From the NCBI GenBank assembly GCA_964539385.1, contig CAZIJC010000002.1, forward strand, positions 16,001 through 80,000: 64,000 nucleotides of DNA. Direction: 5' to 3'. Below are positions 1 through 43,452 of this stretch, piece after piece (the first letter of the stretch is position 1; every line of letters begins with the position of its first letter). The notes below the pieces were generated by a model. That model saw nothing but the letters and a program-made list of their open reading frames with translations, had not been told where the DNA came from and searched no databases. The stretch comes from an uncultured Anaerolineales bacterium. GTDB lineage: Bacteria > Planctomycetota > Phycisphaerae > FEN-1346. Both the position numbers and the translations under genes were made by a program.

Positions 1-2204
1 CCCTGAAGATCACCGACTTCGGCCTCATCGGTCATTCGGGCGGCAAGACCAGTTTGCCGATGGGAACGACCAAGTACATGGCCCCCGAGATGTTCACGGG
101 CGCGCCGGTCGACGCCCGGGCCGACCTGTACAGCCTGGGGATGATCGCCTACGAGATGTTCGTCGGGCCGGAGAAGTTCACGGAGGTGTTCCGCGACGTT
201 CTGCGCGACCAGCGCGCCCAGCAGGTCCGGTGGATGCACTGGCACTCCAACCCGGCGCTGAAGGCCCCGCCGCTGCGCGACCTTCAGCCGGGCATCCCGC
301 CGCTTGTGGCCAAGATCGTCGAGCGCATGACGGAGAAGGACCCGTCGAGACGGTTCGCCTCGTCCGAGCAGGTCATCAAGTGGCTGCGGCGGATCTTCGT
401 CATGCACGTCCAGGGCAAGAGCGTTTCGCAGACCGACTCCAAGACGCTGGAGAAGGAGATGGAAGCCGACGCGACGGCTGTGGTGCCGACGGCGGTCGCC
501 GCGGCCGGTCGGGCCGCCGCGGCGGGCCAGGCCGCCCCCGCCGGGGCGGTGGCGGTGGCCGGCGCGCGGGCCGGCATCGCGCCGCCCGTCGAGAGCGGCG
601 AGACGACCGCGCCGCTTCCCGTGCCGAAGTGGACGTGGAAGCGGGCCACGTTCTGGGGGACCCTCATCGGGGGTCCGCTGATAGCGGCGGCGGTGGGCCT
701 GCTCATCTGGTCCCACTACGAGACGCTTGAACTGGAGCGCGATATCGCACAGGTGCTGGCGGAGGCCGAGGACCAGTTCAACCGCGGCGAGTGGGCCCTG
801 GCGGACCAGAGTTTCACCGACATCGTCCGGACCGACCGGTTCCGCAAACTGGAATCCAAGATGGTCTACGCCAAGCAGCACGCCTTGATGGCCCGGGCGG
901 AACTGTCGCTGGAGAAGAAGGAGTGGGAGAAGGCCGACTCCAACGCCAACATCGCGTCGCAGAAGTTCGGCGTCTCGCCCGCCTGGGTCACGGACTTCAA
1001 GCGGCGGTTCAACAAGGCACGGGACGTCGAACAGGTCATGAAAGAGGTGGAACTGGCCTCAGGCAACGGCAACTACGAGCAGGCGATTTCGCTGCTCGAA
1101 GAACTTCAGGCCAAGTACGCCGATCTCGACCTCAACGCGCAGATCGCCGAGTTCCGCGAAAGGAAGGAACTCGGGGAATACACGGGCCTGGTGGACCAGG
1201 GCAAGCAGCACTTCGAGCGGAAGAACCTCGACGCCGCACAGACGGCCTTTGAGGCCGCACGCAAGATCCGGCCCGGGTCGGAGATCGACGGCCTGCTTCA
1301 AATGGTCGCCATCGAGAAGCAGTACCTTCAGGTGGTCGGGCTTGCCCAGAGGGCCACCGCGGACGGCAAGTGGGCCGAGGCGGTGTCCTACTACCTGGAG
1401 ATCATGAAGATCAGGCCCTCCGAGGCCGTCCGCACCGCCATGAACAACGCCAAGGCCGAGGACCTTGCCGGTCGGGCCAAGACCCTGGCAGAGAACAAAC
1501 TGATGGAGGAGGCCACGGCGCTGGCGACCCAGATCCTCAGTCTCAACCCCAACCACGCATGGGCACTGGAGTTTCTCAAGAAGGCCGGCCGCCAGCGGAC
1601 GCTCGACAACTTCGTGAAGGCCGCCAAGGCCGCCATGGCCAAGGCCCAGTGGGACCAGGTCATCAACACCTGCAAGGAGATCGAGAAACTCCTGACCGAC
1701 GCCGACGCCGACCTCAAGACCCAGGTCGAGGCGTGGAAAACGCAAGCGCACTACCAAACGGCCATGGCCCGCGCGGGCGAGGCCCTGAACCAGAAGAACT
1801 TCACCGAAGCGGAGACCCTCGCCACGAAGGCCCAAACCTTCAAGGACACCAGCGACGTGAACACGCTCATCGAGAAGATCGACACCCACCGCCAGTACTA
1901 CGGCCACCTGGACCTGGGCAAGGAACTCCTGAGCCAGATCAAGTACGTCCCGGCACTGGAGTCCCTCATACGGGCCAAGAAGGTGATGAACACCCAGGAG
2001 GTCCGCAACCTGATTACCGAATGCAACTACCGCCGGTACTTGTCACAGGGCAAGTCATACCTGAAAGACATGCGGTACAAGCAAGCCTTGTCGGTCCTGA
2101 AGATGGCCCAGCGAGCCAAAGATGACATCACGATCCAGGCGATCATCCAGCAGGCAGCGCTGCTGGCGGCCGAACAGGAGAAAAAGCAGAACAAGAAGAA
2201 GTGA
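1..2204 (+). CDS. Ser/Thr protein kinase, 5'-truncated at the window edge, with one transmembrane segment and a C-terminal TPR-like repeat region
   Basis: The reading frame runs from position 3 (LKITDFGLIGHSGG...TTKYMAPE), which gives the DFG and APE motifs of Hanks-type kinase subdomains VII-VIII. A hydrophobic helix WGTLIGGPLIAAAVGLLIW follows. After that come about 450 aa of repetitive Ala/Lys/Glu-rich helical repeats (TPR-like). The true start lies upstream of the window. Confidence 0.85.
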   Translation, partial: LKITDFGLIGHSGGKTSLPMGTTKYMAPEMFTGAPVDARADLYSLGMIAYEMFVGPEKFTEVFRDVLRDQRAQQVRWMHWHSNPALKAPPLRDLQPGIPPLVAKIVERMTEKDPSRRFASSEQVIKWLRRIFVMHVQGKSVSQTDSKTLEKEMEADATAVVPTAVAAAGRAAAAGQAAPAGAVAVAGARAGIAPPVESGETTAPLPVPKWTWKRATFWGTLIGGPLIAAAVGLLIWSHYETLELERDIAQVLAEAEDQFNRGEWALADQSFTDIVRTDRFRKLESKMVYAKQHALMARAELSLEKKEWEKADSNANIASQKFGVSPAWVTDFKRRFNKARDVEQVMKEVELASGNGNYEQAISLLEELQAKYADLDLNAQIAEFRERKELGEYTGLVDQGKQHFERKNLDAAQTAFEAARKIRPGSEIDGLLQMVAIEKQYLQVVGLAQRATADGKWAEAVSYYLEIMKIRPSEAVRTAMNNAKAEDLAGRAKTLAENKLMEEATALATQILSLNPNHAWALEFLKKAGRQRTLDNFVKAAKAAMAKAQWDQVINTCKEIEKLLTDADADLKTQVEAWKTQAHYQTAMARAGEALNQKNFTEAETLATKAQTFKDTSDVNTLIEKIDTHRQYYGHLDLGKELLSQIKYVPALESLIRAKKVMNTQEVRNLITECNYRRYLSQGKSYLKDMRYKQALSVLKMAQRAKDDITIQAIIQQAALLAAEQEKKQNKKK

Positions 2205-4192
2205 GGTGGCCCATGCCCGGTTCACGCAATCCTGAGGCGCGTCGGTCCCGCATCGCACGCGCTCGCGCCGCGCTCGGGCACCTGCACGGATGCGAGCGCG
2301 GCCAGGCGATCTACGTGATGATCCTGTTCTTCTTCCTGTTGGCGGGCCTGCTGTTCCTGGTCCTCACGAGCGGCGAGAAACTCAACCACAAGGTCCAGAT
2401 GCAGAGCGCGGCCGACTCGGCAACCGCCACGGGCGCCGCGTGGTTCGCCCGAGGCCTGAACGTCATCTCGATGTGCAACGTGGCCGAGACGCAACTGTTG
2501 AGCCTCATCGTGCTTCTGGACACGCTGGAGACGGTCACGCCACCCGCCGGCGAGTGCATCGACGACCTGGTCGAGAACATCGGCTCCTCGAAGGCCGGGC
2601 GCGATATTCCGATCGACGACCGGATCTCCGAGTGGCTGGCGGTCGGCAATGCCGCTTCCGAGCAGCGGATCATCCGGAAACTCGACGATATCGTCCGCGA
2701 GATCGATTGGCCCGATTACCTGACGTACGATAACGGCGTCCTGTGGGAATGCACGAAACTCATGGACGGCTTCATGCACGTGATGCGCGAAATCACGCCG
2801 CTGGCGGCACAGCGAGAGGCCGTCGACATCGCCGACGAATGCGGCGCCGACTTCGGATTCATCCTGCCGCTCTATCCGGAACTGCCCGTCCGAGACGGCG
2901 AGTGGCTCGATTTCGAGAACCCCATGCGGGCCGGCCGTATGCCACCGGAAGGCGGACAGGACCCCGACCGCGCGAAGATCATCGGCGGATTCGCACACGT
3001 GATGAACTACCGAGGCTATTACCCGGATTACCTGTACAAAGGCGAGATCCAAAGCGGCCGGGGACCCGTCATGGGGCCATGGTCGTACTGGCGTGAGCCG
3101 TTTACGGCCACCCGGCCGATGGGCCTCTTGGACATCAGCCGCTTCTCGGTCCTGTTCAACCTGGTCTCGTCGCGCAAACTGGAGATGATGTTCGGCACAC
3201 CCGACCCCCAGGTATCGCTGCGCAACTGGGAGATGCAGTACGACACGGCCAAGGACATGAGCGACAACGACATCCTCCGCACGTGGTGGGAGACCGTTTC
3301 GTTCAGTTGCCGCCACCCGTACCCGCAAGACACGTTCTTCTCGAACATTGACCTGCGGCACTATCACCGTCCGACGATCCACACGCATGCGTACGATGGC
3401 TGGCGTGACCTTCCGTCTCCGCCGCGGTCGGGGAACGAACCCATGCCGGGTGTCGAGCAAGGGGTGTCCGTCCCGCAGGGCTGGCAGCGGTCCACGCAGC
3501 CGCAGGAGGGGGCCGACCCCCGCCAGGCGGTCTGGTACGCCGTCACCAAGCACTGGACGTACCATTTCCCGCAGTTGGGAATCTTTGCGCCGCACCCGCC
3601 GGTTCATCCGGACGGTTCGAAGTGGGAGTACACGAACCCGTCGGACTGGAAGGTGTACTACCGGGTACAGATGCGCCGATTTGACGGGGCGGAACTCGAT
3701 ACCGACGAGGAGTTGCACCGCAACTACCTGCCGCCGGGCGGCAACGCCCCCTTCGCGCCCATCATGTTCGACCTCGTCACGGGCGAGCACACCTGGGAGA
3801 ACATCGACAGGTACTTCACCTTCAATGGGTTCGCCTACCGGTCCGGCAAGGTGCGCCACTGGCGAAAGCCGCCCGAGGGGGAAAGGCAGACCACGGGGTT
3901 CCTCAATCCGAACCCCATCGAGGAACTTATCGCCTACGCCCAGGCCCGCGTGTACGCCCGGTACAGTTGGGACCTGTTCACGCAGCACTGGAAGGTCAAA
4001 CTGATGCGGACCGACCGATGGAAGGGGGGTCTGCGGCCGGACTACCGCATGGTGGCAATGAGCCTGGCGAGCGAACTCGGCAAGAGCGTTCCGGGCCAGT
4101 TGGCCGACGTGTTGACGCGCGAACGGATCGAGCCGGTCGAGCGCATGGTCGACGCCTACGATGACCAGTTTGTGGCGGAGTTTACCCATTGA
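2201..4192 (+). CDS. TadG-like Flp pilus-assembly protein (TadE/G-like N-terminus, large periplasmic domain)
   Basis: There is an N-terminal hydrophobic segment (VMILFFFLLAGLLFLVLTSG) followed by HKVQMQSAADSATATGAAWFARGLNVISMCN. This resembles the TadG/Tad-like motif (L..AADAAALAGA). Its start overlaps the kinase stop, and it sits first in a Tad operon. Confidence 0.55.
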   Translation: MRWPMPGSRNPEARRSRIARARAALGHLHGCERGQAIYVMILFFFLLAGLLFLVLTSGEKLNHKVQMQSAADSATATGAAWFARGLNVISMCNVAETQLLSLIVLLDTLETVTPPAGECIDDLVENIGSSKAGRDIPIDDRISEWLAVGNAASEQRIIRKLDDIVREIDWPDYLTYDNGVLWECTKLMDGFMHVMREITPLAAQREAVDIADECGADFGFILPLYPELPVRDGEWLDFENPMRAGRMPPEGGQDPDRAKIIGGFAHVMNYRGYYPDYLYKGEIQSGRGPVMGPWSYWREPFTATRPMGLLDISRFSVLFNLVSSRKLEMMFGTPDPQVSLRNWEMQYDTAKDMSDNDILRTWWETVSFSCRHPYPQDTFFSNIDLRHYHRPTIHTHAYDGWRDLPSPPRSGNEPMPGVEQGVSVPQGWQRSTQPQEGADPRQAVWYAVTKHWTYHFPQLGIFAPHPPVHPDGSKWEYTNPSDWKVYYRVQMRRFDGAELDTDEELHRNYLPPGGNAPFAPIMFDLVTGEHTWENIDRYFTFNGFAYRSGKVRHWRKPPEGERQTTGFLNPNPIEELIAYAQARVYARYSWDLFTQHWKVKLMRTDRWKGGLRPDYRMVAMSLASELGKSVPGQLADVLTRERIEPVERMVDAYDDQFVAEFTH

Positions 4193-4854
4193 AAGCGACA
4201 AGAACCCAAACCCGACGCCGGGCACGCAGGGGAAACGCACTGCTGGAGTTCATGCTGACCCTGCCGATCATCATCTTCATGGCCGGCGTGACGATGTACA
4301 TGTCGTTCGCCATGCTGGCCAGGCAGAATGCCCTCGTGGCTTGCCGCCGCAGCCTCTGGCACAGCGCCGGCCACGGGGGCTGGACCAGCATGAAACTCGA
4401 GGGAACCGTGCCCGGCATGGATGAGGACGACGGCACACAGCGTCCGCGCGGCCAGGGGGAGGAACTCGACCGCCTTCGGCCGGAAGTCGAACCGGAGACC
4501 ATCGCCACAACGACGAACCCCCTGGCCCGCGAGTACTGGTACCGCATCTGGGACAACCTGCCCGGCCGCCACGAGAGCAAGGCCTCGCGGTCGTTCAAGA
4601 CGGCGCCGCTCTGGAGGTTCATTAAAGGCCCCGCCCGGGCCGAGCACAAGCGCGACTCGAGCCCCTGGCATTTCTATCACATCGATGCCTGGAAGATCGC
4701 CCGCGCCGGCCCGCTCAAAGAGATCTTCGAGGCGTTTCGCGAGAACCTCGAAATGGAGACGTTCGCCCCACATTTCGAGCAGACCCGCGACGACATCATG
4801 CGCCGCTGGTGGCACGGCAGCGACATCCTCCGCGAGGAAGACCAGTACAACTGA
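4189..4854 (+). CDS. TadE-like pseudopilin/pilus assembly protein
   Basis: The N-terminus GNALLEFMLTLPIIIFMAGVTMYMSF matches the TadE-family signature (A.vEFAl.lP.l). It is about 220 aa and overlaps the previous gene by 4 bp. Confidence 0.6.
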   Translation: MKATRTQTRRRARRGNALLEFMLTLPIIIFMAGVTMYMSFAMLARQNALVACRRSLWHSAGHGGWTSMKLEGTVPGMDEDDGTQRPRGQGEELDRLRPEVEPETIATTTNPLAREYWYRIWDNLPGRHESKASRSFKTAPLWRFIKGPARAEHKRDSSPWHFYHIDAWKIARAGPLKEIFEAFRENLEMETFAPHFEQTRDDIMRRWWHGSDILREEDQYN

Positions 4855-4931
4855 CCGGTCCGAGCCGCGACCGTGAGGGAGCGGCCGCGCACGCAATACC
4901 TATATCATTGCTGGCAGGACACACGCAGGCC

Positions 4932-5681
4932 ATGACGCACGAGTCGTCCAATTCCGAAGGCGGCCAGCCGCCCGACAAGCGGCGCAAACGACGCTCCCGC
5001 GTGTGGCGCGTTGCGGCCATCATCGTCGTGATCCTTGTGACGCTCGCCCTGGCGCATTACCTTCGGCACCCGGCCGGGGTCTGGGACGGCGATGAGGGCG
5101 GCGGCAACCTGACGTTCGGCCAGTGGCCGCCCGAGGTCGAGCCCTCCGGCCGTACAGCCCGTCCGGGCGGTCCGCCGAAACCCGACGCGAGACCCACCAC
5201 CGACGAGGAGGCGACAGACGATCTGCGACAGGTCATGGCCGGACTCGTGATGGCCGCCATCGGCGACGGCGCCGACACCGACGACCCGCGCGACCAGGAC
5301 GCCGAGGCGAAGCGGCGGTTCATCGCCGACGCCTTCGGCCTGCCGTACGACTATCCGCGTAACAAGGCGCCCGCCGACCTCATGCCACAGGACGCCCAGG
5401 TCCTGATGGTCTTCGAGAATCCCGAGCACGCCGGTTGTCGCATGGTCCTCGTCCGGATGCGCAAGGACGTCGGCGCGGCGCTCGAGGCCTTCTGCAAAGC
5501 CTACGACCAGAAAGGGTGGCAGTGGAACGAACTTGCCAATCCCCGAAAAGACCGTGACTCCCAGCCGGACCCCGGGTGGCTCGTCCGGTTCCACAAGGGC
5601 AAACGCGAACGCATCGTGTACGCCCGCGCCCGCGCCGGCGGCGAAGAAACGCTGGTAGCCATTTACGATCCGCGGTATTAG
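4932..5681 (+). CDS. hypothetical membrane-anchored protein inside the Tad operon (single N-terminal TM helix, Pro/Asp-rich linker)
   Basis: The ORF starts at ATG 4932 (MTHESSNSEGGQPPDKRRKRRSRVWRVAAIIVVILVTLALAHY). I recognised no family. It lies between the TadE and CpaB genes. Confidence 0.4.
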   Translation: MTHESSNSEGGQPPDKRRKRRSRVWRVAAIIVVILVTLALAHYLRHPAGVWDGDEGGGNLTFGQWPPEVEPSGRTARPGGPPKPDARPTTDEEATDDLRQVMAGLVMAAIGDGADTDDPRDQDAEAKRRFIADAFGLPYDYPRNKAPADLMPQDAQVLMVFENPEHAGCRMVLVRMRKDVGAALEAFCKAYDQKGWQWNELANPRKDRDSQPDPGWLVRFHKGKRERIVYARARAGGEETLVAIYDPRY

Positions 5682-5716
5682 AGCCACGCGGGGACAGGCG
5701 AAGCGAAGGAGCACCG

Positions 5717-6484
5717 ATGGCGAGACGAAAGCAAAACCCCTGGCTTCCGAGCGGCGGCGTGCTGGTCGTGGCGGTGATTGCGGCCGTCCTGGCCGGCATC
5801 CTCCTCAACGTGTACGTCATGTATCTGAAGAGTTCCTACGAGGCCGGGGCGGAGATGTTCCTCCAGTTGAAGAGGAACGTGGCGAAGGGTAAGCCCATCG
5901 AGTCCGCCGACATCATGGCGTTCCGCGTTCCCCAGCCGTTGCTTCCGAGTTTCTCCCAGGTCGTCAAGGCGCGGTACAAGGACAGTTCAGTCATCGGCAA
6001 CAAGCCCCGCCGCAACATGTTCAAGGGCGAGTTCCTGCTGAATACCGATTTCCTGCCCGGTTCGGCCAGAAAACTTGATAATATTCGCCCGGGCTACGAG
6101 CGGATGACGATCGAAATCCAGCCCGAACCGCTCCTGCAACCGGGAGCCTTCATCACCATCCGCGGGGCCTTCGACACCAACCCCGACGAGCGGAAAGAAG
6201 ACCGCGAGATCATGGACGTTCTGTATAATATCCAGGTCAAGGCCGTCGGCGGGTCCGCCGAGCCGACCGAGGACAGGCGGCGGGCCGACAACAACATCCA
6301 GATTGAGTTGAAATCGACCCAGGCCAAGCAGTTGCTCCAGATCAAAGAGGTCCTCGTTGACAAGCACTTTGTCGTCTCACTCAGCCCGTCGCCGACGGGC
6401 AAGGCGGGCGAGCCGAAGTTCGCCGACGCCATACTCGACCACATTGCCAAATTGAGGAGAGTCGTGCCGCCGGTCTCGCCGTAA
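5717..6484 (+). CDS. cpaB: Flp pilus assembly protein CpaB (RcpC), SAF-domain family
   Basis: It has an N-terminal TM helix (GVLVVAVIAAVLAGILLNVYVM), then a region like the CpaB SAF domain (IESADIMAFRVPQPLLPSFSQVV...GEFLLNTDF). It immediately precedes the CpaF ATPase gene. Confidence 0.7.
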   Translation: MARRKQNPWLPSGGVLVVAVIAAVLAGILLNVYVMYLKSSYEAGAEMFLQLKRNVAKGKPIESADIMAFRVPQPLLPSFSQVVKARYKDSSVIGNKPRRNMFKGEFLLNTDFLPGSARKLDNIRPGYERMTIEIQPEPLLQPGAFITIRGAFDTNPDERKEDREIMDVLYNIQVKAVGGSAEPTEDRRRADNNIQIELKSTQAKQLLQIKEVLVDKHFVVSLSPSPTGKAGEPKFADAILDHIAKLRRVVPPVSP

Positions 6485-6511
6485 GCAGGCCACACAGGGG
6501 CGCAAGAGCCC

Positions 6512-8401
6512 ATGCGCGTTATCGCGTACAGCCAGTTGAGCGACGTGCGGCAGGAGATCGAACTGACCGGGGAGGTTCTGCGCATCGGCCGCGACCCCGC
6601 CAACGACCTCGAACTGCCCAGCCCGTTCGTCTCGCGCGAGCACGCGCGAATCATCACACGCGACGGCGACTACCTCATCGAGAACGTCGGGCTGAACGGC
6701 ACGCTTGTCGATGACGACCTGGTCGGGGTGGGCGAGCAGGTCAAGATCGCACCCGGCCAGGAGATTCACATCGGCGAGTGGGCGCTGTACCTGTCGGCCG
6801 ACGAGGCCGTCCAGCCCACCGACAAGGCCATCAGGATTCACCGAGAACGCACCCCACTGGCCAAGGCGATGGCTGTCGAGAAAAAGGTCCACGGCGAACT
6901 CCTGCGCCGGCTCAACCTGCGGACCATCGACGTCGAGGCGCAGGACGACCCCCGCTACGTGGACCACATCAAGGCCCACCTGTCGGCCGTCATCGACGGC
7001 ATCATCAGCGAGGTCGACGATGAGTCGGGCTGGTTCCTGGTGGCGCAGCAACTGAAGCGCGACGTCATTACCGAGATCTCCCGCCGCGCGGGCAGCAAGA
7101 TGCGGCCGCCCATCCTGAAGGCCGGCGACGCCGTTCTCGACCCGCAGTACGAGGCGGGTCTGCTGCGAATGCGCGACCTTTTGATCCAGGACCTCGGCCT
7201 GAAATTCGGTGCAGCGAACGTCAAGGAAGACGTCGAGGCCGTCGAGGAACGGTTCCACGAAGAGTTCAACCGCGAGGCCCCGCAGGTCACCGAGTCGCTC
7301 TGGGTCTACATCGTTCGCCGCTACATCTTGAAGGACATCCTCGACATCGTGGTCGGCCTCGGCCCCATCCAGGACCTGCTCGACATGCCGAACGTAACCG
7401 AGGTCATGGTCGTGGGCCCGAGCAAGATCTATATTGAAGAAACCGGCGTCATCCGCAACACCGGCCGATCGTTCTTCTCCGACGAGATCGTCCTGACGGT
7501 CATCGAGCGCATCGTCACGCCCCTCGGCCGGCGCATCGACCGCTCCAGCCCCATCGTCGACGCCCGGCTGCCCGACGGCAGCCGTGTCAACGCCACGATC
7601 GAGCCGTTGAGTCTCTGCGGACCGGTCCTGACGATCCGCAAGTTCTCCGAGACGCCGTTCACGATCGACGACCTCATCGGTTTCGGAACCATCACGCCGT
7701 TTGCCGCCAACTTCCTGCGGGCCTGCGTCCTGGGGCGCAAGAACGTGCTGGTCTCGGGCGGCACGGCGTCCGGCAAGACCACCCTTCTGAACGTCGTCAG
7801 CGCCTACATCCCGCCGCACGAGCGCATCATCACCATCGAGGACTCGGCCGAGTTGCAGATGTACCAGGAGCACGTGGTACGCGTCGAGACACGCCAGGCC
7901 AACGTCGAGGGCAAGGGCCGCTACACCATTCGGGCACTCGTCCAGAACGCGCTGCGGCAGCGGCCGGACCGCATCATCGTCGGCGAGGTCCGCGGCGCCG
8001 AGGCTCTCGACATGCTACAGGCCATGAACACCGGCCACGACGGGTCCCTCACAACCATCCACGCCAACAGCCCCCAGGACGCCATGAAACGCCTCGAGGG
8101 CCTCGTCCTGGAGGCCGTGGACATGCCCGTGCGGGCCATCCGCGAGCAGATCGTCACCGCCCTCGACGCCGTCGTCCACCTGACGCGATTCGCCGACGGA
8201 CGCCGCGAGGTCACCGCCGTCAGCGAGATTGCCGGCCTGGACCGCGATGAGGGCGACATCGTCGTGGAAGACATCTTCGTGCGGCCGATGATCGGCACGG
8301 AGCGCGGCAAGCGCGGAGAACTGATGCACACCGGCTATATACCGCTGTTCGCCAAGGACCTGCTCCACAAGGGCCTCCTGACCGTTGATGCGTTCATGTA
8401 A
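6512..8401 (+). CDS. cpaF: CpaF/TadA-type pilus assembly ATPase with an N-terminal FHA domain
   Basis: The N-terminus has FHA-domain hallmarks ([46 protein letters not shown]). The C-terminal part has the T2SS/T4SS ATPase Walker A motif ([16 protein letters not shown]), a DSAEL-type motif ([10 protein letters not shown]), and [12 protein letters not shown]. Confidence 0.9.
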
Positions 8402-8404
8402 ACC

Positions 8405-9304
8405 ATGACCGAACTCGTTCCACTAGCCCAGGATGTGCTGTTGTATCGCGGCGGGGCAACCCTGCTGGCGATGTTTGCGGCGTTCTGCGCCGTCATCTCG
8501 CTGCGGCTGCCGTTTCGCGCGCTTATCCGCAAGCAGGAGGAGGACTTCCACGGCGCGCTGGTCGAGTTGTTCATGTTCGACGTCACGCCGCGCCAACTGA
8601 CCTACGTCATGTTTGGCGGGGCGTTTGTCGCAGGCCTCATCCTCGCGCTGCTTGCCAACCACGCCGAGGCGGGGATACTCGGCGTCATCATCACGTTCGT
8701 GGTCGGGATGGTCCTCGGCTACTGGGTGCCGCGCCTCGTCATCTTCGTCCTCCAGCGGCGCAGGCGCGACAAACTCAACGAGCAACTCATCGACGGCCTG
8801 GTGACCCTGGCCAACGGCATGCGAGCCGGGCTGAACCTGGTTCAATCGATGAAATTGATCGAGGACAACACCGAGCCGCCCATCAGCCAGGAGTTCGGCC
8901 TCATGCTCCGAGAGTTCGAGCACGGCACCAGCGTCGATGAGGTCATGCGGCGGGCGTCGGCCAGGCTGAAGTTGCACCACTACCAACTCCTGTTTGCCGC
9001 AATGGAGACCGCACGCATTCGCGGCGGGAACCTGCCCGAGACGCTCGACCGGCTCGGCGAGTCGCTCCGCGAGATCATTCGGCTCGAAGAAAAGGTCAGG
9101 GCCCTGACCGCCGAGAACAAAATGAGCGCCATCATGATGGGCCTCATGCCCCTGGTCGTCGCGGGCATCTACTATATGATCGAGCCGACCTGGGTGGAGG
9201 CGCTCTTCAACGACGAGTACGGAATGCTCCTGCTCGTCATTGCCATCTTTCTGAACCTTGTCGGGTTCCTCTGGATTCGCAAGATCGTGACGTTCGAGAT
9301 CTAG
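8405..9304 (+). CDS. tadB: TadB-like pilus assembly inner-membrane protein (T2SSF domain)
   Basis: It is a multi-TM protein with a T2SSF-like cytoplasmic region (GMRAGLNLVQSMKLIEDNTEPPISQEFGLMLREFEHGTSVDEVMRRASARL). It sits directly downstream of cpaF. Confidence 0.7.
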   Translation: MTELVPLAQDVLLYRGGATLLAMFAAFCAVISLRLPFRALIRKQEEDFHGALVELFMFDVTPRQLTYVMFGGAFVAGLILALLANHAEAGILGVIITFVVGMVLGYWVPRLVIFVLQRRRRDKLNEQLIDGLVTLANGMRAGLNLVQSMKLIEDNTEPPISQEFGLMLREFEHGTSVDEVMRRASARLKLHHYQLLFAAMETARIRGGNLPETLDRLGESLREIIRLEEKVRALTAENKMSAIMMGLMPLVVAGIYYMIEPTWVEALFNDEYGMLLLVIAIFLNLVGFLWIRKIVTFEI

Positions 9305-9328
9305 GCCGCAACGAGGGAGACGGACGGC

Positions 9329-10237
9329 GTGATTCTGATCGTCATCATCAACGTGCTGGTGTTCGCGTCGGTGTTTCTGTTCGTCTCTGCGCTGTTCCGC
9401 ACGCCGATCGAGACGGAGGATGCATCCGCATTCCGGATCGAGGTGGACAATATTGATCGCGACACCATCTTCGAGAGCGCTTTCATGCGGCCGTTCCTGG
9501 TTCCCATCTACCACGTGGTTCGGCGGCTGAACATGCCGGGTCTGAAGCGGCACATCCTGAAACTGCTTATGGCCCTCGGCAATCCGAACCAATACACCTC
9601 CGACGAGTACCTGGTCATCTGCACGGTGTGGGGCCTGATCGCGGCCATCGCGCTGTGGCTGGGGGTCTGGGCGATGCTGGGGTACCTCTCGATTCTGGCC
9701 CTGCTGGGCTACCTGGCGGTCGGTTTTGCCGTGGGGTTCTTCACGGCGTACCTGCTGCTTCGCGAGCGGGCCTTGGCCCGTCTGCGTATGATTGCCAAGC
9801 GCCTGCCGTACACGCTCGACCTGATTGCCATGGCGATGGACGCCGGCGCGACGTTTTACGAGGCCGCCAACGCCGTTATCCGCGACGACCCGGAGGAACC
9901 GCTGAACCAGGAGTTCGGCATGGTGGTCCGGGAGATCGATTTCGGCCGCAGCCGCCAGGACGCCCTCACCCATCTGGGCCAACGCATCAACGTGGACGGC
10001 CTCGACGGCATCATTTCGGCCGTCCTTCAGGCCGAGCAACTCGGCACGCCGCTGGCCGAGGTCCTCAAACTCCAGTCAAACCTCCTCCGGATGCGCCGCA
10101 GCATGAAGGCCGAGAGGCGAGCCGGAGAGGCCGCCGTCAAGATGCTCGTGCCGTCCATGCTCATCCTCGTCGCCGTCGTCCTCGTCATCTTCGCCCCCAT
10201 CATCGTGCGCCTCATCCGTGGCCAGTACCTGGAGTAG
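9329..10237 (+). CDS. tadC: TadC-like pilus assembly inner-membrane protein (T2SSF domain)
   Basis: It is a multi-TM protein containing LDLIAMAMDAGATFYEAANAVIRDDPEEPLNQEFGMVVREIDFGRSRQDALTHLGQRI, which is a T2SSF-like motif. This is the second T2SSF gene after tadB. Confidence 0.7.
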   Translation: MILIVIINVLVFASVFLFVSALFRTPIETEDASAFRIEVDNIDRDTIFESAFMRPFLVPIYHVVRRLNMPGLKRHILKLLMALGNPNQYTSDEYLVICTVWGLIAAIALWLGVWAMLGYLSILALLGYLAVGFAVGFFTAYLLLRERALARLRMIAKRLPYTLDLIAMAMDAGATFYEAANAVIRDDPEEPLNQEFGMVVREIDFGRSRQDALTHLGQRINVDGLDGIISAVLQAEQLGTPLAEVLKLQSNLLRMRRSMKAERRAGEAAVKMLVPSMLILVAVVLVIFAPIIVRLIRGQYLE

Positions 10238-10325
10238 AACCACGGTCGCCGGGATGTGGGGGGGGCGCTCCTGTAAGCGTCCAGACGCCTGCTCCCGGAA
10301 GTGGACAAAACACCTTCCGGTGCGC

Positions 10326-11615
10326 TTACTTGTCGAGCGGCTCCAGATAAATGTTGCGGAACTCGATGGGGCTGCCTTCGCTCTGCAGGCAGATGGAGCC
10401 GCTGGACGGGTTGGCGTCTGTGCCTTCGTTCTGGAGTTGGCCGTTGACGATGAGTTTGACCGTGCCGCCGTCGCAAATGATGTCGTAGGTATTCCACTGG
10501 CCGGCGGGTTTCTCGCTCGACGGGGCCTTCTTCTTGACGTTGGCGAAGGCTTTCGGCCCGATCTGCTCTCCGGCCACCTTGATCGTCGAGTGGCTCAGCA
10601 GCCAGAAGTCACCGGCATTCTGGTGCATGAGTTGGGCCTCGATGCACTTGGGCCAGACCCTGTCGATGCCGGTGCGGTGAAGCAGCACGCCGCTGTTGGT
10701 GGGCTTCTCGGCCCATCGCCATTCCACGTGCAGTTTGTAGTTTGCGTACTCCTCGCAGGTGCGGATGTAGCCGTTGGGTTTGCCTTCGCAGCGGATGATG
10801 CCGTCGCGGACGCTCCAGACCTTGTCCACCGTCCATTTCTTGTCGGGGCCGCGCTGGTCGTTCGGGATGAAGCGGACCCAACCGCTGAGGTCCTCGCCGT
10901 TGAAAAGGACAATTTTGCTGGTGGGGACAACGGGCCAGGGCTTGTTCTTATCATTGGCGGGCTCGATGGTGATGTTGCGGAACTCAATGGGCACACCTTC
11001 GCTCTGAAGGCAGATCTTGCCGCCGCTCAGGGAACAGGCGGTCGCCTCGTTCATGAGTTTGCCGTTGACGTACGGCCGGACGGTGTCGCCGACGCACCAG
11101 ACCTCGTAGACGTTCCACTGGCCGGGCTCCTTTTCGTTGTGGGCGTCGTACTTGACGACCCTTCTGCCCCCGACGCGATGGCCGCCGCTGCTGTGCTCGT
11201 TGAACTCGACGCCGCCGATTTCGAAAAAGTCGCCCTGGTTGCGGAACATGCCCTGGCATTCCAGGCTCTTGGGCCAGACGCGGTCTTCGCCGACCATGTG
11301 GACAAGGATGCCGTTGTTCCCGGTGCGGCCGGGCCAGCGATACTCGACGCGGACCTTGTAGTTCTTGTAGGCCTTGGCGGTGCGGATGTAGCCGGCCGGC
11401 TTGCCGGTGCAGGCCAGGATGCCTCCGGCTTGGATGGTCCAGGTCTCATCCACCTTGCCTTCGCCTCGCAGATGGCGGACCCAGCCGTCGAAGGTCTTGC
11501 CGTCGAACAGCACGGTCTTGGCCGTTGGTTCAATCGCCTCTTCCGCCCCCATGGCCGCCGACAACGGAGCCAGCACCACGCACACGACACCGAGAATCCA
11601 TGCTTCGCGTTTCAT
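10326..11615 (-). CDS. secreted protein with two tandem DUF1080 (3-keto-disaccharide hydrolase-like, concanavalin-like fold) domains
   Basis: A signal peptide (MKREAWILGVVCVVLAPLSAAMG) precedes two internally repeated units of about 200 aa. Each unit has the motif set FDGKTFDGW / FNGEDLSGW, then W.v.dG.i, then GYIRT, then Y.NYK(v/l), then E(y/w)RW, then GVLLH, then DRVWPK.IE.Q, then ICLQSEG.PIEFRNI. This is typical of DUF1080. Confidence 0.8.
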   Translation of the reverse strand: MKREAWILGVVCVVLAPLSAAMGAEEAIEPTAKTVLFDGKTFDGWVRHLRGEGKVDETWTIQAGGILACTGKPAGYIRTAKAYKNYKVRVEYRWPGRTGNNGILVHMVGEDRVWPKSLECQGMFRNQGDFFEIGGVEFNEHSSGGHRVGGRRVVKYDAHNEKEPGQWNVYEVWCVGDTVRPYVNGKLMNEATACSLSGGKICLQSEGVPIEFRNITIEPANDKNKPWPVVPTSKIVLFNGEDLSGWVRFIPNDQRGPDKKWTVDKVWSVRDGIIRCEGKPNGYIRTCEEYANYKLHVEWRWAEKPTNSGVLLHRTGIDRVWPKCIEAQLMHQNAGDFWLLSHSTIKVAGEQIGPKAFANVKKKAPSSEKPAGQWNTYDIICDGGTVKLIVNGQLQNEGTDANPSSGSICLQSEGSPIEFRNIYLEPLDK

Positions 11616-11894
11616 CACGCTCTCCTTTCCAAACGGGAGTTGAGGATAGGGAACCTGTCGTCCACCCTCTTGGGTGGCCACCGGCGACGACTCAGCATAA
11701 GGGAAAGAAAGGCACAGTCAAGACTCATGCTTTCCCCTCAGCCTCGCCGGTGTCCACTCGGTAGGTGACGCTCTTGCCTTTTCCCGGGTCCAATGCCACA
11801 ATCTTCATGCCGGGACCCTTTTGATTCGCGCCGGTGGGCGATGCCCCGTGGATCAGCCCGATTCCTCGCCCGGCCGCAGACAGGGGGCAAGATC

Positions 11895-13286
11895 ATGCAT
11901 CCGAGCGTTCTGCTGCCGGTGCTGTGTGCGGCGTTGGTTGGCATAGGCGTGGCGTTGCCGGCGGCGGAGGTGGCCGAGCCTCCCGGCGCGGGCGACCGCA
12001 TCCAGCCCTGGCCGAAGAATCCCTATTACTGGCAGTTCAAGGGGGTGCCCGTGCTGCTCTTGGGCGGGTCGGTCGAGGACAACCTGTTTCAGATACCGAA
12101 CCTGGCCGAGCACCTGGACCTGCTAAGCGCGGCCGGCGGCAACTACGTCCGCTGCACCATGAGTTGCCGCGACCAGGGCGACGTCTGGCCGTTCGCCGGG
12201 ACGGGCGGCGCGTACGATCTGGACAAGTGGAACGGCGAGTTCTGGCGCAGGTTCGATGAGTTCCTCGCCGAGACCGCCCGGCGCGGCATCATCGTCCAGA
12301 TCGAAGTGTGGGCCACCTTCGACTACTACCGCGACCTCTGGCAGCGGAACCCCTTCAACCCGAAGAACAACGCCACCTACACGGCCGAGGCGTCGGGGCT
12401 GCCGCTGGAGGTGAAGACGCATCCCACGAGGACGGAGAACGATTTCTTCCGCTCGGCGCCCGGAGCAAAGAACCTGAAGGTGGTGCTCAAGTACCAGGAG
12501 TGGTTCGTCGAGAAACTCCTCTCCTGCAGCCTCCGCTGCGACCACGTCCTGTACTGCATGGACAACGAGACGAGCGTCACGCCGAAGTGGGGCGCGTACT
12601 GGGCGACGTTCATCCGCAGGAAGGCGGCCGCCGCCGGCCGGCGCGTCGAGGTCACCGAGATGTGGGACAAGTGGGACCTCGCGCATCCGCAGCACAACGC
12701 CACGTTCGACCATCCGGAGACCTACTCCTTCGTCGATATATCGCAAAACAACCACAACAAGGGACAGACGCACTACGATAATATGCAGAAGCAGCGGCGG
12801 CGCCTCGCACAGCGGGTCCGCCCGATGAACAACGTCAAGATCTACGGGGCCGACGGCGGCCGCTACGGCGACACGCGCGACGGCGTCGAGCGCCTCTGGC
12901 GAAACGTCTTCGGCGGGTGCGCGTCGGCCCGTTTTCACCGGCCATCGAGCGGTATCGGACTCTCGAAACTCGCGCAGCGGATGATACGAGCGGCGCGCGA
13001 CGTGACCGGCGCGTTCGACCTGTTCGCCTGCAAGCCGCACGCCGACCTCCTCTCGGACCGCAACGAGGGCGAGGCCTACTGCCTGGCCCAACCGGGCAAG
13101 CAGTACGCCGTCTACTTCCCCCGCGGCGGGCAGGTGACGCTCAACACGAAAGACGCCGCTGGCCGGACGCTTCGCTGGTACGACATCGACGCCGGCACGT
13201 GGCGCAAGGTCCAAGAGGTGAAGGGCGGCGGCACGATCGAACTCAAGACGCCCGGCGCCGGCCAGTGGGCCGCCGTCGTCCGATAA
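11895..13286 (+). CDS. secreted putative glycoside hydrolase (TIM-barrel, cellulase-like/DUF4038-like)
   Basis: It has a signal peptide (MHPSVLLPVLCAALVGIGVALPAAEVA). It is a paralogue of the 14689-16144 gene: shared motifs are NYVRCTM, FWRRFDEFL, ARRGIIVQIEVWA and NETS. The exact family cannot be verified without a search. Confidence 0.45.
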   Translation: MHPSVLLPVLCAALVGIGVALPAAEVAEPPGAGDRIQPWPKNPYYWQFKGVPVLLLGGSVEDNLFQIPNLAEHLDLLSAAGGNYVRCTMSCRDQGDVWPFAGTGGAYDLDKWNGEFWRRFDEFLAETARRGIIVQIEVWATFDYYRDLWQRNPFNPKNNATYTAEASGLPLEVKTHPTRTENDFFRSAPGAKNLKVVLKYQEWFVEKLLSCSLRCDHVLYCMDNETSVTPKWGAYWATFIRRKAAAAGRRVEVTEMWDKWDLAHPQHNATFDHPETYSFVDISQNNHNKGQTHYDNMQKQRRRLAQRVRPMNNVKIYGADGGRYGDTRDGVERLWRNVFGGCASARFHRPSSGIGLSKLAQRMIRAARDVTGAFDLFACKPHADLLSDRNEGEAYCLAQPGKQYAVYFPRGGQVTLNTKDAAGRTLRWYDIDAGTWRKVQEVKGGGTIELKTPGAGQWAAVVR

Positions 13287-13349
13287 GCGATTGTCCCGCA
13301 ACATGCGCGGCGGGTCTCCCGACCCGCCGCGACGGAGGGAGGTGCCGCC

Positions 13350-14693
13350 GTGACGATCCGTACCTTCGCCGCCGTTCTGCTCGTGTTCGCGCTGCCCGCG
13401 TGGGCGGCGCCGCCGGTGGTGGTTGAGGAGGGGGACCGCCCGATACTGGCGGCGTTCCTCGGCCACGCCGAGCGGTCGGCCGCCTACTGCACGGCGGAGC
13501 GGATGGCGAAGTTCGCGGCCCAGCCGGAGGACATCGTGTGGCAGGGGTCGCGGTACATCCGTCTGCCGCTCCTGGCGTACCGCCTGACGGGCGACGCCAG
13601 GTACCTCGACGAATTCGTGAAACGGTGCGACGCTCTGTACGGCTGCCAGACGAAGGGCGGCGACGGGTTCCTCGGCTGGTACGGTCTGCCGCTGCCGCTC
13701 TTCCGCCATCCGGACCACCCTGAGGAGAAGGTCGATTGTCTCCTCACAAGTTTCGAGGTAGCGCGGATGGCCGCCGATTTTGCGCGCGTAGTCCGGGCCG
13801 ACGATGCGCTCGTCCGCCGCCACGGACGCGCGGCCGAGCGCTATCTGAAGGTGGCCGAGGAGCACCTGGTCAGAAAATGGGACGCCCGCAAGTGTTACCG
13901 CGACCTCGGCAGATTGGGGGCCGTCTACAGCACGCACCCGGGCCTGAAGTCCGTCAAGGCGGGCCTCACCCAGCCGCACAACAAGCACGCCAAGATCGTC
14001 CGGGCGCTCGTCTCGCTCTACGCCGCCACCGGCAGGGATGAGCACCTCGTGAAGGCCGTCAAACTCGCCGCGCGGTTCAAGCGATGCCTCGCGCTTGCCG
14101 AGGGTCATTACACGTGGAACTACTGGGACCCGGCCGGGCCGTGGGACGTCCATCCCGAGGACCCGGCCAAGTGGAAGCACTGGATCGGGGCCGAGCATCG
14201 CGGCGGGTACTACGCCCTGTCGCTCTCGCAGGCGGTGCTGCTGTACGAGCACGGCCTGGTGTTCGACCGCTCCGACATCGACCGGTTCGTGCAGACGCAG
14301 ACGACGGTCTGCTGGAACGGCGACACCGAGCATCCCAAGTGGGCCCGCGTGGACGGCCGCGCTATGGATCAAGTCTACCTGTGCGCGTACCTGGCGCCGT
14401 TCGACAATGCGATTCGCGAGATGGCCCTGGGTGCGCCCGCGCGCCGCGAACGTCTCAAGCACAAGGACCATTCGTGGCAGGGCTCGGTCGTGGCGGCCGA
14501 GTACCTGGAGATGAAGTACCTGACGTACCCGCGTTGGCGCGACGGTTCGCCGGCCGAGAAGGCGACCGCGGCGCCGTTCCTCGCCAAACCGGCAAACCAG
14601 GCGCTGCTGAAGGAACTGGCGCTGGAGGTCAAAGCGCCCGGTTACCGCGCCCCGCAGACGCCGGCGCAGATGAATCCTGGAGGTGTGCGATGA
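13350..14693 (+). CDS. secreted hypothetical protein, possibly an alpha/alpha-toroid polysaccharide lyase/hydrolase accessory
   Basis: It has a signal peptide (MTIRTFAAVLLVFALPAWAAP), is Trp/Tyr-rich, and carries no recognisable catalytic motif. It is embedded between glycan-active genes. Confidence 0.4.
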   Translation: MTIRTFAAVLLVFALPAWAAPPVVVEEGDRPILAAFLGHAERSAAYCTAERMAKFAAQPEDIVWQGSRYIRLPLLAYRLTGDARYLDEFVKRCDALYGCQTKGGDGFLGWYGLPLPLFRHPDHPEEKVDCLLTSFEVARMAADFARVVRADDALVRRHGRAAERYLKVAEEHLVRKWDARKCYRDLGRLGAVYSTHPGLKSVKAGLTQPHNKHAKIVRALVSLYAATGRDEHLVKAVKLAARFKRCLALAEGHYTWNYWDPAGPWDVHPEDPAKWKHWIGAEHRGGYYALSLSQAVLLYEHGLVFDRSDIDRFVQTQTTVCWNGDTEHPKWARVDGRAMDQVYLCAYLAPFDNAIREMALGAPARRERLKHKDHSWQGSVVAAEYLEMKYLTYPRWRDGSPAEKATAAPFLAKPANQALLKELALEVKAPGYRAPQTPAQMNPGGVR

Positions 14694-16144: not shown

Positions 16145-16156
16145 GGGGAAGCCGCC

Positions 16157-27741: not shown

Positions 27742-27990
27742 GTTACAAACCGTTTACACCGTCGAGTCAACAATTGGTGTACAACAGGACGAGAGAGGTA
27801 GTGTGCCAGACCGTCCGTGCCTCGCCGGCAGCGGGCTTTTCGCCGGCGAGCGCCATAGGGAAGCCGGAGAATGCGCGGAACCCTATGTGGCAAGCCGCGT
27901 CTATTCAGGAAAGCGCATGCGCGTCTTCGCCGCGCCGGCGGCGAGAGCGAACGTCCGATACCGAAGCACTCAAGGACCATTACCGAGGGC

Positions 27991-40788: not shown

Positions 40789-43452
<2,664 letters not shown>

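Follow-up and report, generated by a model that had tools for sequence, protein, structure and literature searches.

Secretion ATPases of Tad pili that carry an N-terminal FHA domain have been described before. The cryo-EM study of CpaF (Nat Commun 2025; PMC12019362) defined class III CpaF by the domain order FHA-IDR-3HB-NTD-CTD and reported it mostly in betaproteobacteria; kinases and function are outside the subject of that study. KilF, the motor of the Kil system of Myxococcus xanthus, is also an FHA-CpaF (Seef et al, 2021; PMC8460266). In the cytoplasm it is diffusely distributed, and it is recruited to sites of contact with prey when required; the authors proposed an upstream signalling cascade, and TadZ/CpaE is unmentioned in the main text of that paper (PMC8460266). 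A kinase paired with an FHA-fused transport NTPase is known from Mycobacterium tuberculosis, where PknF and Rv1747 are encoded in one operon and phosphorylation positively regulates the transporter (PMC3138270, PMC8339232).

Here, a 64-kb stretch of DNA from a Phycisphaerae bacterium (the window) and its source contig were analysed, in which a Hanks-type Ser/Thr kinase and an FHA-CpaF are encoded in the same Tad cluster. To our knowledge, the switching and positioning of Tad pili are understood mainly for polar, TadZ/CpaE-dependent systems, and the phospho-signalling input for FHA-bearing motors like KilF and class III CpaF has so far only been guessed at. We know of nothing reported on Tad function in Planctomycetota.

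Results

The kinase gene lies inside the Tad cluster

Counted along the source contig, the kinase gene comes sixth in a run of 13 genes with the same direction and thus lies inside the Tad cluster (Table 1), and not upstream of the Tad operon as a preliminary description of this DNA had placed it. The genes located 5' of the kinase fall outside the window and encode a TadA-type ATPase of 385 aa that lacks an FHA domain, two Flp-type pilins (Flp1_like, PF16982), a prepilin peptidase (Peptidase_A24), and a TadE-like protein. The cluster is tightly packed with a largest gap of 188 bp, its internal terminator-like sites were not above chance, and the next called gene beyond the TadC-like gene is on the opposite strand. 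TadG-like, TadE-like, CpaB-like, TadB, and TadC genes are present, the first three being tentative assignments from weak matches that are borderline or below the curated cut-offs; the Pfam Tad score of the TadG-like protein, whose gene has an exact-sequence match on the source contigs, is 22.8 bits against a cut-off of 22.3. The longer ORF of the TadE-like gene begins at 4,189.

A 4-bp overlap between the kinase and TadG-like genes had also been described. The GTGA exists in the sequence, where an alternative start GTG at 2,201 overlaps the stop codon TGA (2,202–2,204) of the kinase, but the overlap hinges on this doubtful start. Because the gene callers start the TadG-like gene at ATG 2,213 with a GAGG 6 nt upstream, a gap of 8 nt is more likely.

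A TadZ-like (TadZ/CpaE, ParA/MinD-like) ORF was not found in the window or in locus L004. A secretin-like (RcpA/CpaC) ORF was absent from the 64-kb window and all the Planctomycetota loci, and could be encoded elsewhere in the genome. Similarly, a PP2C phosphatase was not found in the cluster, the window, or the Phycisphaerae relatives. The cluster has no free-standing FHA scaffold, the CpaF being the only FHA match in the window, and the remaining 54 kb of the window contain no other kinase.

Table 1. Features of the Tad cluster located within the window.
Feature	Position	Strand	Size or residues	Basis and remarks
Hanks-type Ser/Thr kinase	3..2204	+	residues 157–889 of 889	Pkinase and TPR Pfam matches
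Kinase juxtamembrane motif E-T-T358-A-P-L-P	600..620	+		T358 = 606–608; L/I at pT+3
Kinase TM helix, single	645..710	+	residues about 371–392	read from sequence
TadG-like large pseudopilin or assembly protein	2213..4192	+	659 aa	Pfam Tad (PF13400) E = 1.2e-4, N-terminus; gene call
TadE-like small protein	4252..4854	+	200 aa	weak Pfam TadE, E = 3e-3, 18.1 bits vs 22.9 (below cut-off); conserved cluster position
Membrane protein of unknown function	4932..5681	+	249 aa	no family match; syntenic in relatives
CpaB/RcpC-like protein	5717..6484	+	255 aa	TIGR03177 pilus_cpaB E = 3.8e-10, 39.5 bits vs 71 (below cut-off)
FHA-CpaF motor ATPase	6512..8401	+	629 aa	Pfam, PDB, and model matches
FHA-CpaF domains	FHA at 6512–6796		FHA 1–95; disordered linker 98–113; helical region 115–291; then TadA/CpaF NTD and ATPase core	
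TadB-like platform protein (T2SSF)	8405..9304	+		Pfam T2SSF E = 6.7e-20
TadC-like platform protein (T2SSF)	9329..10237	+		Pfam T2SSF E = 7.9e-16; last cluster gene

The kinase has intact catalytic residues and a conserved juxtamembrane motif

The edge of the window cuts the kinase, such that the first letters encode LKITDFG from residue 157 and the N-terminal 156 aa fall outside; the full-length protein was taken from the source contig, the window alone holding DFG onwards. In the protein, a kinase domain on the cytoplasmic side is followed by a variable Ala/Gly/Pro linker, a single TM helix, and, at the C-terminus, a TPR-like domain of ~500 aa that is predicted to be periplasmic, in agreement with the membrane Ser/Thr kinase with TPR repeats described earlier. 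The K/R residues on the N-terminal side of the TM helix would, by the positive-inside rule, give an N-in, C-out topology. The full-length kinase matched NF033483 (E = 9e-70), and K48, E67, HRD141–143, N148, DFG161–163, and APE183–185 were invariant in 55/55 orthologues. Among the same orthologues, the activation-loop Thr172, Thr178, and Thr179 were conserved. Judged by its sequence, the protein is a Hanks-type kinase with every catalytic residue intact, and its activity and autophosphorylation are predicted.

Following ~40 aa of variable linker, T358-A-P-[L/I]-P was found as an island of conservation, with T, A, and L/I kept in all 55 orthologues and the first and second P in 51 and 52 of them, respectively. 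Kinases of other lineages, which are not orthologous, lacked the TAPLP motif. This T358 motif is possibly a phospho-docking site for the FHA domain and is considered here as a candidate FHA ligand; it could instead have a structural or membrane-proximal role.

The motor ATPase carries an FHA domain with the phosphothreonine-contacting residues

The presence of an FHA domain with its core motifs at the N-terminus of the CpaF had been noted earlier, and the present analysis agreed with it. The Pfam FHA match spans aa 24–88 (E = 4e-14; 53.1 bits against a gathering score of 20.7) and is followed by a T2SSE match (PF00437; E = 1.5e-61). The best solved relatives are CpaF (PDB 8rkd/8rjf/9e24; E = 3e-98 for aa 269–600), as are the top Foldseek matches of the modelled protein. 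The Walker A (GGTASGKTT), the 10-residue Walker B/Glu, and the 12-residue His box motifs are intact, and their columns are invariant in homologue alignments. The gene adjoins the TadB/TadC platform genes. By these features, the protein is a CpaF/TadA secretion ATPase with a predicted role in pilus extension/retraction.

The FHA motifs G26-R27, S41-R42-x-H44, and N62-G-T64 align to GR, SRrHA, and LNGT of GarA and do not vary among homologues with identities as low as 55%. In a set of 134 sequences, G26 was kept in 134, R27 in 127, S41 in 128, H44 in 132, N62 in 127, and T64 in 121, and each of the pThr-contacting residues R27, S41, R42, N62, and T64 was kept in >90%. Thus, all the phosphopeptide-binding residues, on which the preliminary description had made its claim depend, were present on alignment. 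The AF2 model showed a beta-sandwich at 1–95, a pLDDT of 32 at 98–113, and helices from 115 onwards, and the modelled FHA fold matched the FHA domains of GarA/OdhI with TM(target) of 0.70–0.85 and rmsd of 1.8–2.9 Å. The domain is therefore a bona fide FHA, for which pThr-peptide binding is predicted from the conserved residues. The same region also matches the Yop-YscD_cpl model weakly. Because the CpaF linker contains no conserved Thr, a GarA-like self-inhibition was not supported.

The kinase and FHA-CpaF are kept together in relatives

Orthologues of the kinase were found in about 70 metagenomic loci with 43–93% kinase identity, and the adjacency of kinase and Tad genes was conserved in these relatives. 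The kinase kept its position: the TadE-like gene was upstream of it in 52 of 54 loci, and in about 50 of 50 it was followed by the TadG-like gene. Among the informative loci, all 18 had FHA-CpaF downstream of the kinase, and all 27 had the short ATPase upstream. The CpaB-like gene was directly upstream of FHA-CpaF in all the Planctomycetota loci. The pairing of the kinase with FHA-CpaF across dozens of relatives points to a phosphorylation-controlled pilus assembly.

The association was further examined in a census of 80 CpaF loci from species-representative genomes, of which 19 have the FHA domain and 61 lack it. A Hanks kinase was encoded within 10 kb at 9 of the 19 FHA-CpaF loci and at none of the 61 FHA-less loci (Fisher p = 4e-7), where the 19 loci were chosen by similarity to the query and are not phylogenetically independent, 10 being of Planctomycetota. 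The FHA-less loci without kinase include those of the kinase-rich Actinomycetota and Chloroflexota, and the enrichment at FHA-CpaF loci spans several phyla. At the other 10 of 19 FHA-CpaF loci, several of which are short contigs, no kinase was found in the retrieved DNA of up to 10 kb on each side. The kinases of other lineages occupy different positions in their clusters and have different sensor domains, which argues for repeated recruitment. Furthermore, TadZ adjoined the ATPase at 0/16 FHA-CpaF loci and 45/56 FHA-less loci (p = 3e-9). FHA-CpaF was seen in Planctomycetota, Myxococcota, some Proteobacteria, and others. Some relatives carry a free FHA gene, and in one of them (L052) a PP2C, two FHA proteins, and two kinases adjoin the FHA-CpaF.

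Discussion

The observed gene content, the intact catalytic and pThr-binding residues, the conserved synteny, and the statistical association are best read, with a probability of roughly 0.6, as those of a Phycisphaerae Tad (type IVc) pilus machine that is gated by phosphorylation. We infer the phosphorylation, the docking site, and the recruitment or activation of the motor as follows. A receptor-type Hanks kinase, encoded among the pseudopilin genes, would sense an envelope or surface cue and autophosphorylate on threonine. The N-terminal FHA domain of CpaF would read the phosphothreonine, most likely at the juxtamembrane T358-A-P-L/I-P of the kinase itself and less likely on a component of the machine that has been phosphorylated. 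This would bring the hexameric motor, otherwise soluble, to the TadB/TadC platform or activate it there, so that pilus dynamics follow the signal, and the kinase/FHA pair would stand in for the absent TadZ/CpaE, the usual ATPase-localising factor. The kinase-dependent control of the pilus proposed earlier thus stands as far as the kept FHA residues and the conserved kinase–Tad linkage are concerned, while its mechanism is still a proposal.

A different function for the same parts was considered, in which the kinase and FHA domain would decide which of two TadA-type ATPases engages the platform, for example extension versus retraction as with PilB/PilT, rather than simply turning the motor on. 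The second ATPase at the head of the cluster is 44% identical to the CpaF core with Walker motifs kept, its orthologue occurs in every informative relative, a second ATPase was present at 8/19 FHA-CpaF loci versus 1/61 FHA-less loci, and those of Planctomycetota, a Myxococcota MAG, and L052 grouped together in a rough neighbour-joining tree, albeit an unbootstrapped one. We regard such a choice of motor as unlikely, since characterised Tad systems work with one bifunctional CpaF (PMC6920026) and the Kil system is described with a single ATPase (PMC8460266). It is somewhat less probable still that the FHA domain docks on phosphorylated TadB, TadC, or another membrane protein instead of the kinase, as in the T6SS of Agrobacterium, where PpkA phosphorylates TssL and Fha binds p-TssL (cited in PMC11217815). 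TadB and TadC do have several conserved Thr, but these belong to the folded T2SSF domain, which would be expected to be conserved in any case. No conserved Thr was found in the cytoplasmic tails of the CpaB-like and TadG-like proteins, nor in the N-terminal one of the 249-aa membrane protein, which speaks against the latter as the target suggested earlier.

The FHA domain might also serve for interaction or oligomerisation independently of phosphorylation, in the manner of the FHA-like domains of YscD/PrgH in T3SS, with the kinase acting on another target such as pilins, pseudopilins, or a transcription factor. The weak Yop-YscD_cpl match, the cluster lacking a phosphatase, and the location of the kinase gene among pseudopilin genes would fit this, but the retention of the canonical pThr-contacting residues and the specific co-occurrence of kinase and FHA-CpaF, with kinases at none of the FHA-less loci, make it improbable. 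Planctomycetota and Myxococcota encode many Hanks kinases, and the adjacency of kinase and Tad genes could have been a coincidence in a kinase-rich phylum. This was already disfavoured and is highly improbable given that synteny does not vary across about 70 loci, with kinase identities as low as 43%, that no further kinase occurs in the rest of the window, and that kinases are missing even from the FHA-less loci of kinase-rich phyla.

Extending the phosphorylation-gated machine to the other lineages, we tentatively suggest, at less than even odds, that FHA-CpaF marks a distinct and widespread Tad sub-class in which a Hanks kinase/FHA phospho-switch has replaced TadZ for placing and activating the motor. 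Pili would in that case be assembled as needed, where the periplasmic sensor is triggered and not at a fixed landmark, the conserved second FHA-less TadA paralogue would be an opposing or basal motor, and cluster-encoded kinases could fill the "upstream signalling cascade" of the Kil system. The locus and its relatives offer testable parts, namely a dedicated receptor kinase, the invariant candidate docking residue T358, and a motor with an intact FHA reader; the mutual exclusion of FHA-CpaF and adjacent TadZ at the examined loci is a further testable point. If true, Ser/Thr phosphorylation would be a means of gating type IV filament motors post-translationally in general, and the locus would offer an entry point to how Tad systems function in Planctomycetota.

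Comparison with known systems

Like the canonical Tad/Flp systems (tad of Aggregatibacter and cpa of Caulobacter), the cluster encodes Flp pilins, a prepilin peptidase, TadB/TadC, a CpaF-family motor, and proteins tentatively assigned as CpaB-like and TadE/TadG-like. It differs from them in that one of its two motors is fused to an FHA domain and a kinase gene lies within the cluster, with no TadZ/CpaE or secretin in the cluster or window. The parallel drawn earlier with the PpkA/PppA/Fha1 pathway of T6SS (TssL–Fha in Agrobacterium) holds as an analogy: both have a membrane Hanks kinase in the cluster of the machine, and an FHA reader gates assembly post-translationally, as is proposed here. 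The T6SS module, however, has a free FHA scaffold and a PP2C, whereas the motor ATPase itself bears the FHA in the present cluster, which has no phosphatase, and so the threonine-phosphorylation pathway is an analogy and not one to which this locus belongs. PknF-Rv1747 shares the kinase gene in an operon with a transport NTPase bearing an N-terminal FHA, but Rv1747, an ABC exporter, carries two FHA domains, and its own linker contains phospho-acceptor Thr residues, whereas the CpaF linker here has no conserved Thr.

The wiring is less unusual than the preliminary description had claimed, in that FHA-CpaF fusions are already described as class III CpaF (PMC12019362) and KilF (PMC8460266); a cluster-encoded kinase for FHA-CpaF Tad systems is, as far as could be found, undescribed in the literature. 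The Kil system is likewise a Tad-like machine whose motor has an N-terminal FHA. It is divided between two clusters with a short secretin, several free FHA/TPR proteins, and one described ATPase, and no true kinase domain is listed in them, whereas the present cluster is contiguous, is without secretin or free FHA protein, and includes two ATPases together with a Hanks kinase in its midst; no predatory function like Kil prey killing is implied. By its modelled FHA, disordered linker, and helical bundle before a CpaF-type core, the motor falls within the definition of class III CpaF. It differs from the reported members in its Phycisphaerae host and in a longer helical region between FHA and NTD (aa 115–291), and its cluster also contains genes for a second ATPase and for a kinase that looks cognate.

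A Hanks-type kinase is encoded within the Tad gene cluster

Eight co-directional Tad-related genes occupy positions 1–10237 of the window on the plus strand, and the cluster starts 4 kb farther upstream on the source contig, beyond the window. The order on the source contig is a 385-aa TadA-type ATPase without FHA domain (the short ATPase), two Flp-type pilin genes, a prepilin peptidase, a 377-aa TadE-like gene and the 889-aa kinase. The source-contig gene map thus makes the kinase gene 6 of 13, within the Tad cluster and not upstream of the operon as the preliminary description had it. The 4-bp overlap claimed there between the kinase and the TadG-like gene is present as GTGA (GTG 2201, TGA 2202–2204), but the start used by gene callers is the ATG at 2213, which has GAGG ahead of it at suitable spacing. 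The observation itself was real; gene order and overlap needed correction. The largest intergenic gap in the cluster is 188 bp, and the counts of internal promoters and terminators in the cluster were no higher than in shuffled sequence.

Features of the window and of the compared loci (window coordinates unless a locus is named)
Feature	Coordinates	Strand	Remarks
Short ATPase	L004 (source contig locus) 3742–4899		385 aa; heads the cluster, ~3.6 kb upstream of window start
Hanks-type kinase, C-terminal 733 residues	3–2204	+	Window opens inside the gene at LKITDFG
TadG-like protein	2213–4192	+	
TadE-like protein, small	4252–4854	+	
Conserved membrane protein	4932–5681	+	249 aa
CpaB-like protein	5717–6484	+	
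FHA-CpaF ATPase	6512–8401	+	
Helical region of FHA-CpaF, between FHA and NTD	6854–7384		aa 115–291; about six helices
TadB	8405–9304	+	
TadC	9329–10237	+	
ORF considered as an extra cluster gene	10218–11768	+	No family match and probably spurious; the gene called here is a 3-keto-disaccharide hydrolase, opposite strand
Putative polysaccharide-degradation block	10326–18628		Directly 3′ of the Tad cluster; 3-keto-disaccharide hydrolase (− strand), Collagen_bind_2/DUF6298 proteins, DUF4962/heparinase II/III-like protein
Four very long ORFs	23905–43863	+	1278, 1211, 2624 and 1218 aa; no Pfam match at E ≤ 1e-4; possibly giant proteins, cell-surface or unknown, of a type typical of Planctomycetota
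Mfd/TRCF transcription-repair coupling factor	44515–48003		DEAD, Helicase_C, UvrB_inter and TRCF domains; ordinary housekeeping gene
FHA-only gene, divergent	L110 (relative) 3080–4180	−	Pfam FHA E = 4e-18; likewise in L101, L117, L126, L129, L132, L134, L139, L142, L148
Tad cluster of an uncultured bacterium	L052 3971–19608		Kinase (Sel1-like repeats), secretin, FHA-CpaF, TadB/C, 2 FHA proteins, PP2C, second kinase-like gene, second ATPase
Atypical kinase locus	L152 1–5560		Kinase orthologue (89% identity, N-terminus)

The kinase and its neighbourhood are conserved among relatives

The full-length kinase sequence was taken from the source contig. All 55 orthologues keep its K48, E67, HRD141–143, N148, DFG161–163 and APE183–185, along with T172, T178 and T179 of the activation loop. 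After the kinase domain come a variable Ala/Gly/Pro linker and a single TM helix flanked N-terminally by K/R; TPR-like repeats make up the next ~500 residues. The predicted layout is that of a receptor kinase with an extracytoplasmic sensor. Median identity was 82% for the catalytic domain against 37% for the sensor domain.

Scanning metagenomes with the complete kinase yielded 78 loci. A full or partial orthologue (43–93% identity) is present in 70 of them, and these were annotated by profiles for which proteins of the cluster itself served as seeds. The adjacency of kinase and Tad genes was found to be conserved across these orthologues: the short ATPase lies upstream of the kinase in 27/27 loci, a TadE-like gene precedes it in 52 of the 54 informative loci, a TadG-like gene follows it in effectively 50/50 (six apparent misses were ORF-boundary artefacts), and FHA-CpaF lies downstream in all 18 loci that extend far enough. 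Because synteny is kept among the orthologues and the kinases below ~40% identity (L157–L163) lie outside Tad clusters, the kinase family appears to be dedicated to Tad clusters of this type. In L152, three consecutive ATPase-like ORFs precede the kinase in place of pilin, peptidase and TadE genes, an arrangement that could reflect rearrangement, frameshifts or mis-assembly. In many close relatives the short ATPase is preceded, at a distance of a few kb, by an FHA-only gene in divergent orientation; the source contig has redoxin, HTH and methyltransferase genes at this site.

The motor ATPase carries a canonical FHA domain

The FHA-bearing ATPase is a CpaF: it matches Pfam T2SSE (E = 1.5e-61), and its residues 269–600 match solved CpaF structures (E = 3e-98). 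The Walker A and Walker B/Glu motifs are intact, and so is the His box. Its first 95 residues match FHA at 53 bits (cut-off 20.7), and the phosphopeptide-binding residues are kept across 134 non-identical FHA-CpaF sequences, G26 being invariant and R27, S41, R42, H44, N62 and T64 each 90–99% conserved; both points agree with the preliminary description. These residues line up with GR / SRrHA / LNGT of GarA, an FHA protein with a structure in phosphothreonine-containing form (PDB 2kfu, "Rv1827 pThr 22"). An AlphaFold2 model showed a confident beta-sandwich (1–95), a disordered linker (98–113) and helices from residue 115, and was used only for these three parts since the ATPase core was of low confidence owing to a shallow alignment. 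The modelled FHA part superposed on GarA/OdhI at 1.8–2.9 Å. More helices lie between FHA and the ATPase NTD than in Caulobacter CpaF, for which a three-helix bundle is described, and a profile of the aa 115–291 segment matches hardly anything but Planctomycetota FHA-CpaFs. One FHA-CpaF, 92% identical, lies on a contig labelled "uncultured Anaerolineales" (L006, CAZEBQ010000172.1); the label is probably a binning error because all other close relatives are Phycisphaerae/Planctomycetota.

Kinases are enriched near FHA-CpaF and TadZ is missing beside it

An alignment scan with FHA-CpaF, one genome per GTDB species, gave 80 CpaF loci, 19 with FHA on CpaF and 61 without, many Actinomycetota and Chloroflexota among the latter. 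A Hanks kinase was found within 10 kb in 9/19 FHA-positive and 0/61 FHA-less loci (Fisher p = 4e-7) and TadZ adjoining the ATPase in 0/16 and 45/56, respectively (p = 3e-9), p-values that overstate independence because 10 of the 19 FHA-positive loci are Planctomycetota and the 80 loci were picked by similarity to the query. Free FHA proteins were likewise distributed unevenly (7/19 against 2/61).

In each of the nine kinase-positive loci the kinase lies among the Tad genes or immediately next to them, at varying positions. In L007, as in the window, it is internal to the cluster. In L010, L011, L012 and L070 it follows TadC, with a small FHA protein directly before it in L011 and L070. L081 has it upstream of the pilin gene and L052 upstream of CpaB-like and secretin genes; in L016 it is on the opposite strand beside pilin genes, and in L059 it diverges from the Flp gene. 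The accessory domains vary as well, with a cNMP-binding domain in L081, Sel1-like repeats (read from sequence) in L052 and others differing again. The occurrence of different kinases at different positions argues for repeated recruitment and, through it, for functional coupling to FHA-CpaF loci. L052 further carries a PP2C phosphatase, two FHA proteins and a second kinase-like gene, and by this predicted content its Tad cluster holds a near-complete T6SS-like phospho-module.

TadZ/CpaE is the usual ATPase-localising partner. Using a checked search seed (AAA_31/CbiA), a ParA-like ORF was found anywhere in the locus in 56/56 FHA-less loci against 3/16 FHA-positive ones, the three matches being distant and partial, and no TadZ-like ORF was detected in the whole 64-kb window. 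Most FHA-less loci have TadZ immediately upstream of the ATPase, the slot held in non-planctomycete FHA-positive loci by a secretin directly before FHA-CpaF. No recognisable secretin was found in the 64-kb window or in the Planctomycetota clusters.

A candidate ligand and a proposed mode of control

In the 134 FHA-CpaF sequences, the linker has no conserved Thr other than T114. Residue 114 (T96/D16/S8/N2) is followed by an invariant Pro, and S/T/D/N-Pro is a classic helix N-cap signature. The idea that Thr114 accepts phosphate and Asp is its natural phosphomimic was rejected in favour of such a cap, the first modelled helix starting at residue 115. The conserved 249-aa membrane protein, earlier suggested as a target, has a cytoplasmic tail without conserved Thr; the CpaB-like and TadG-like proteins were set aside on the same ground, and the conserved Thr of TadB/TadC, being located in the folded T2SSF domain, tell nothing either way. 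In the kinase itself, a conserved island, [E/D]-x-T358-A-P-[L/I]-P, sits after a ~40-residue variable linker and ~8 residues ahead of the TM helix, with T358 and A in 55/55 orthologues and L/I at +3. An aliphatic residue at +3 is favoured by many FHA domains. The 49%-identity relative L007 has EATAVLP at this position. A search seeded with PstP, which weak relatives might escape, found no cognate PP2C in the window or the Phycisphaerae relatives and matches only in L052, L078 and one unrelated locus.

The general scheme that we propose from sequence, with a probability of about 0.6, is that a kinase signal leads to FHA docking and CpaF is recruited or activated. A signal would reach the periplasmic TPR domain, the kinase would autophosphorylate, T358 included, and the FHA domain would dock at pT358, bringing the CpaF hexamer to, or activating it at, the TadB/TadC platform; kinase/FHA docking would substitute for TadZ. 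T358 is the leading candidate for the specific docking site, at low confidence. The scheme fits the PknF-Rv1747 precedent (PMC3138270) and what has been published on KilF: spread diffusely before prey is contacted, this protein then gathers into foci (PMC8460266).

Among rival readings, the cluster may switch between two motors, the short ATPase and FHA-CpaF. The short ATPase has no FHA domain, disordered region or helical bundle; it shares 44% identity with the CpaF core, and its Walker motifs are intact. A second ATPase occurs in 8/19 FHA-positive and 1/61 FHA-less loci, and those of FHA-type Tad loci (Planctomycetota, a Myxococcota MAG, L052) cluster together in a rough NJ tree. The FHA domain may instead dock on some phosphorylated part of the machine, in the manner of T6SS TssL, against which stands the survey of tails and folded domains for conserved Thr, or it may be phospho-independent, against which stand its conserved binding residues. 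Chance adjacency of kinase and Tad genes is very unlikely, being disfavoured by the synteny data.

Comparison with known systems

The locus is a Tad system without TadZ and, locally, without secretin. In the literature searched, which was incomplete with most subscription journals outside it, no paper was found on a Hanks kinase encoded within a Tad cluster, on mutual exclusion of FHA-CpaF and TadZ, or on Tad systems of Planctomycetota. The FHA-CpaF fusion is already described: it is class III CpaF in the 2025 cryo-EM paper (PMC12019362), and KilF of the Myxococcus Kil system has it too. The authors of the Kil study had themselves made the T6SS PpkA/Fha analogy (PMC8460266). Kil clusters are listed with FHA and TPR proteins but without a true kinase domain, whereas the present cluster has an embedded Hanks kinase. 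The "Protein kinase G" label of MXAN_4648 in the Kil supplement was not taken as kinase evidence, as the domains given for this protein are FHA and TPR and the label is probably a TPR-based match. Without secretin and free FHA proteins the cluster is not a strict Kil system, and without PP2C and a free FHA protein it is not a T6SS-type pathway. The proposed kinase-dependent control of the pilus is thus analogous to the T6SS without membership in it, and the putative kinase/FHA control of the Tad motor is supported by comparative genomics. The FHA fusion is not new; new here are the embedded kinase, the exclusion of TadZ and the paired second motor.
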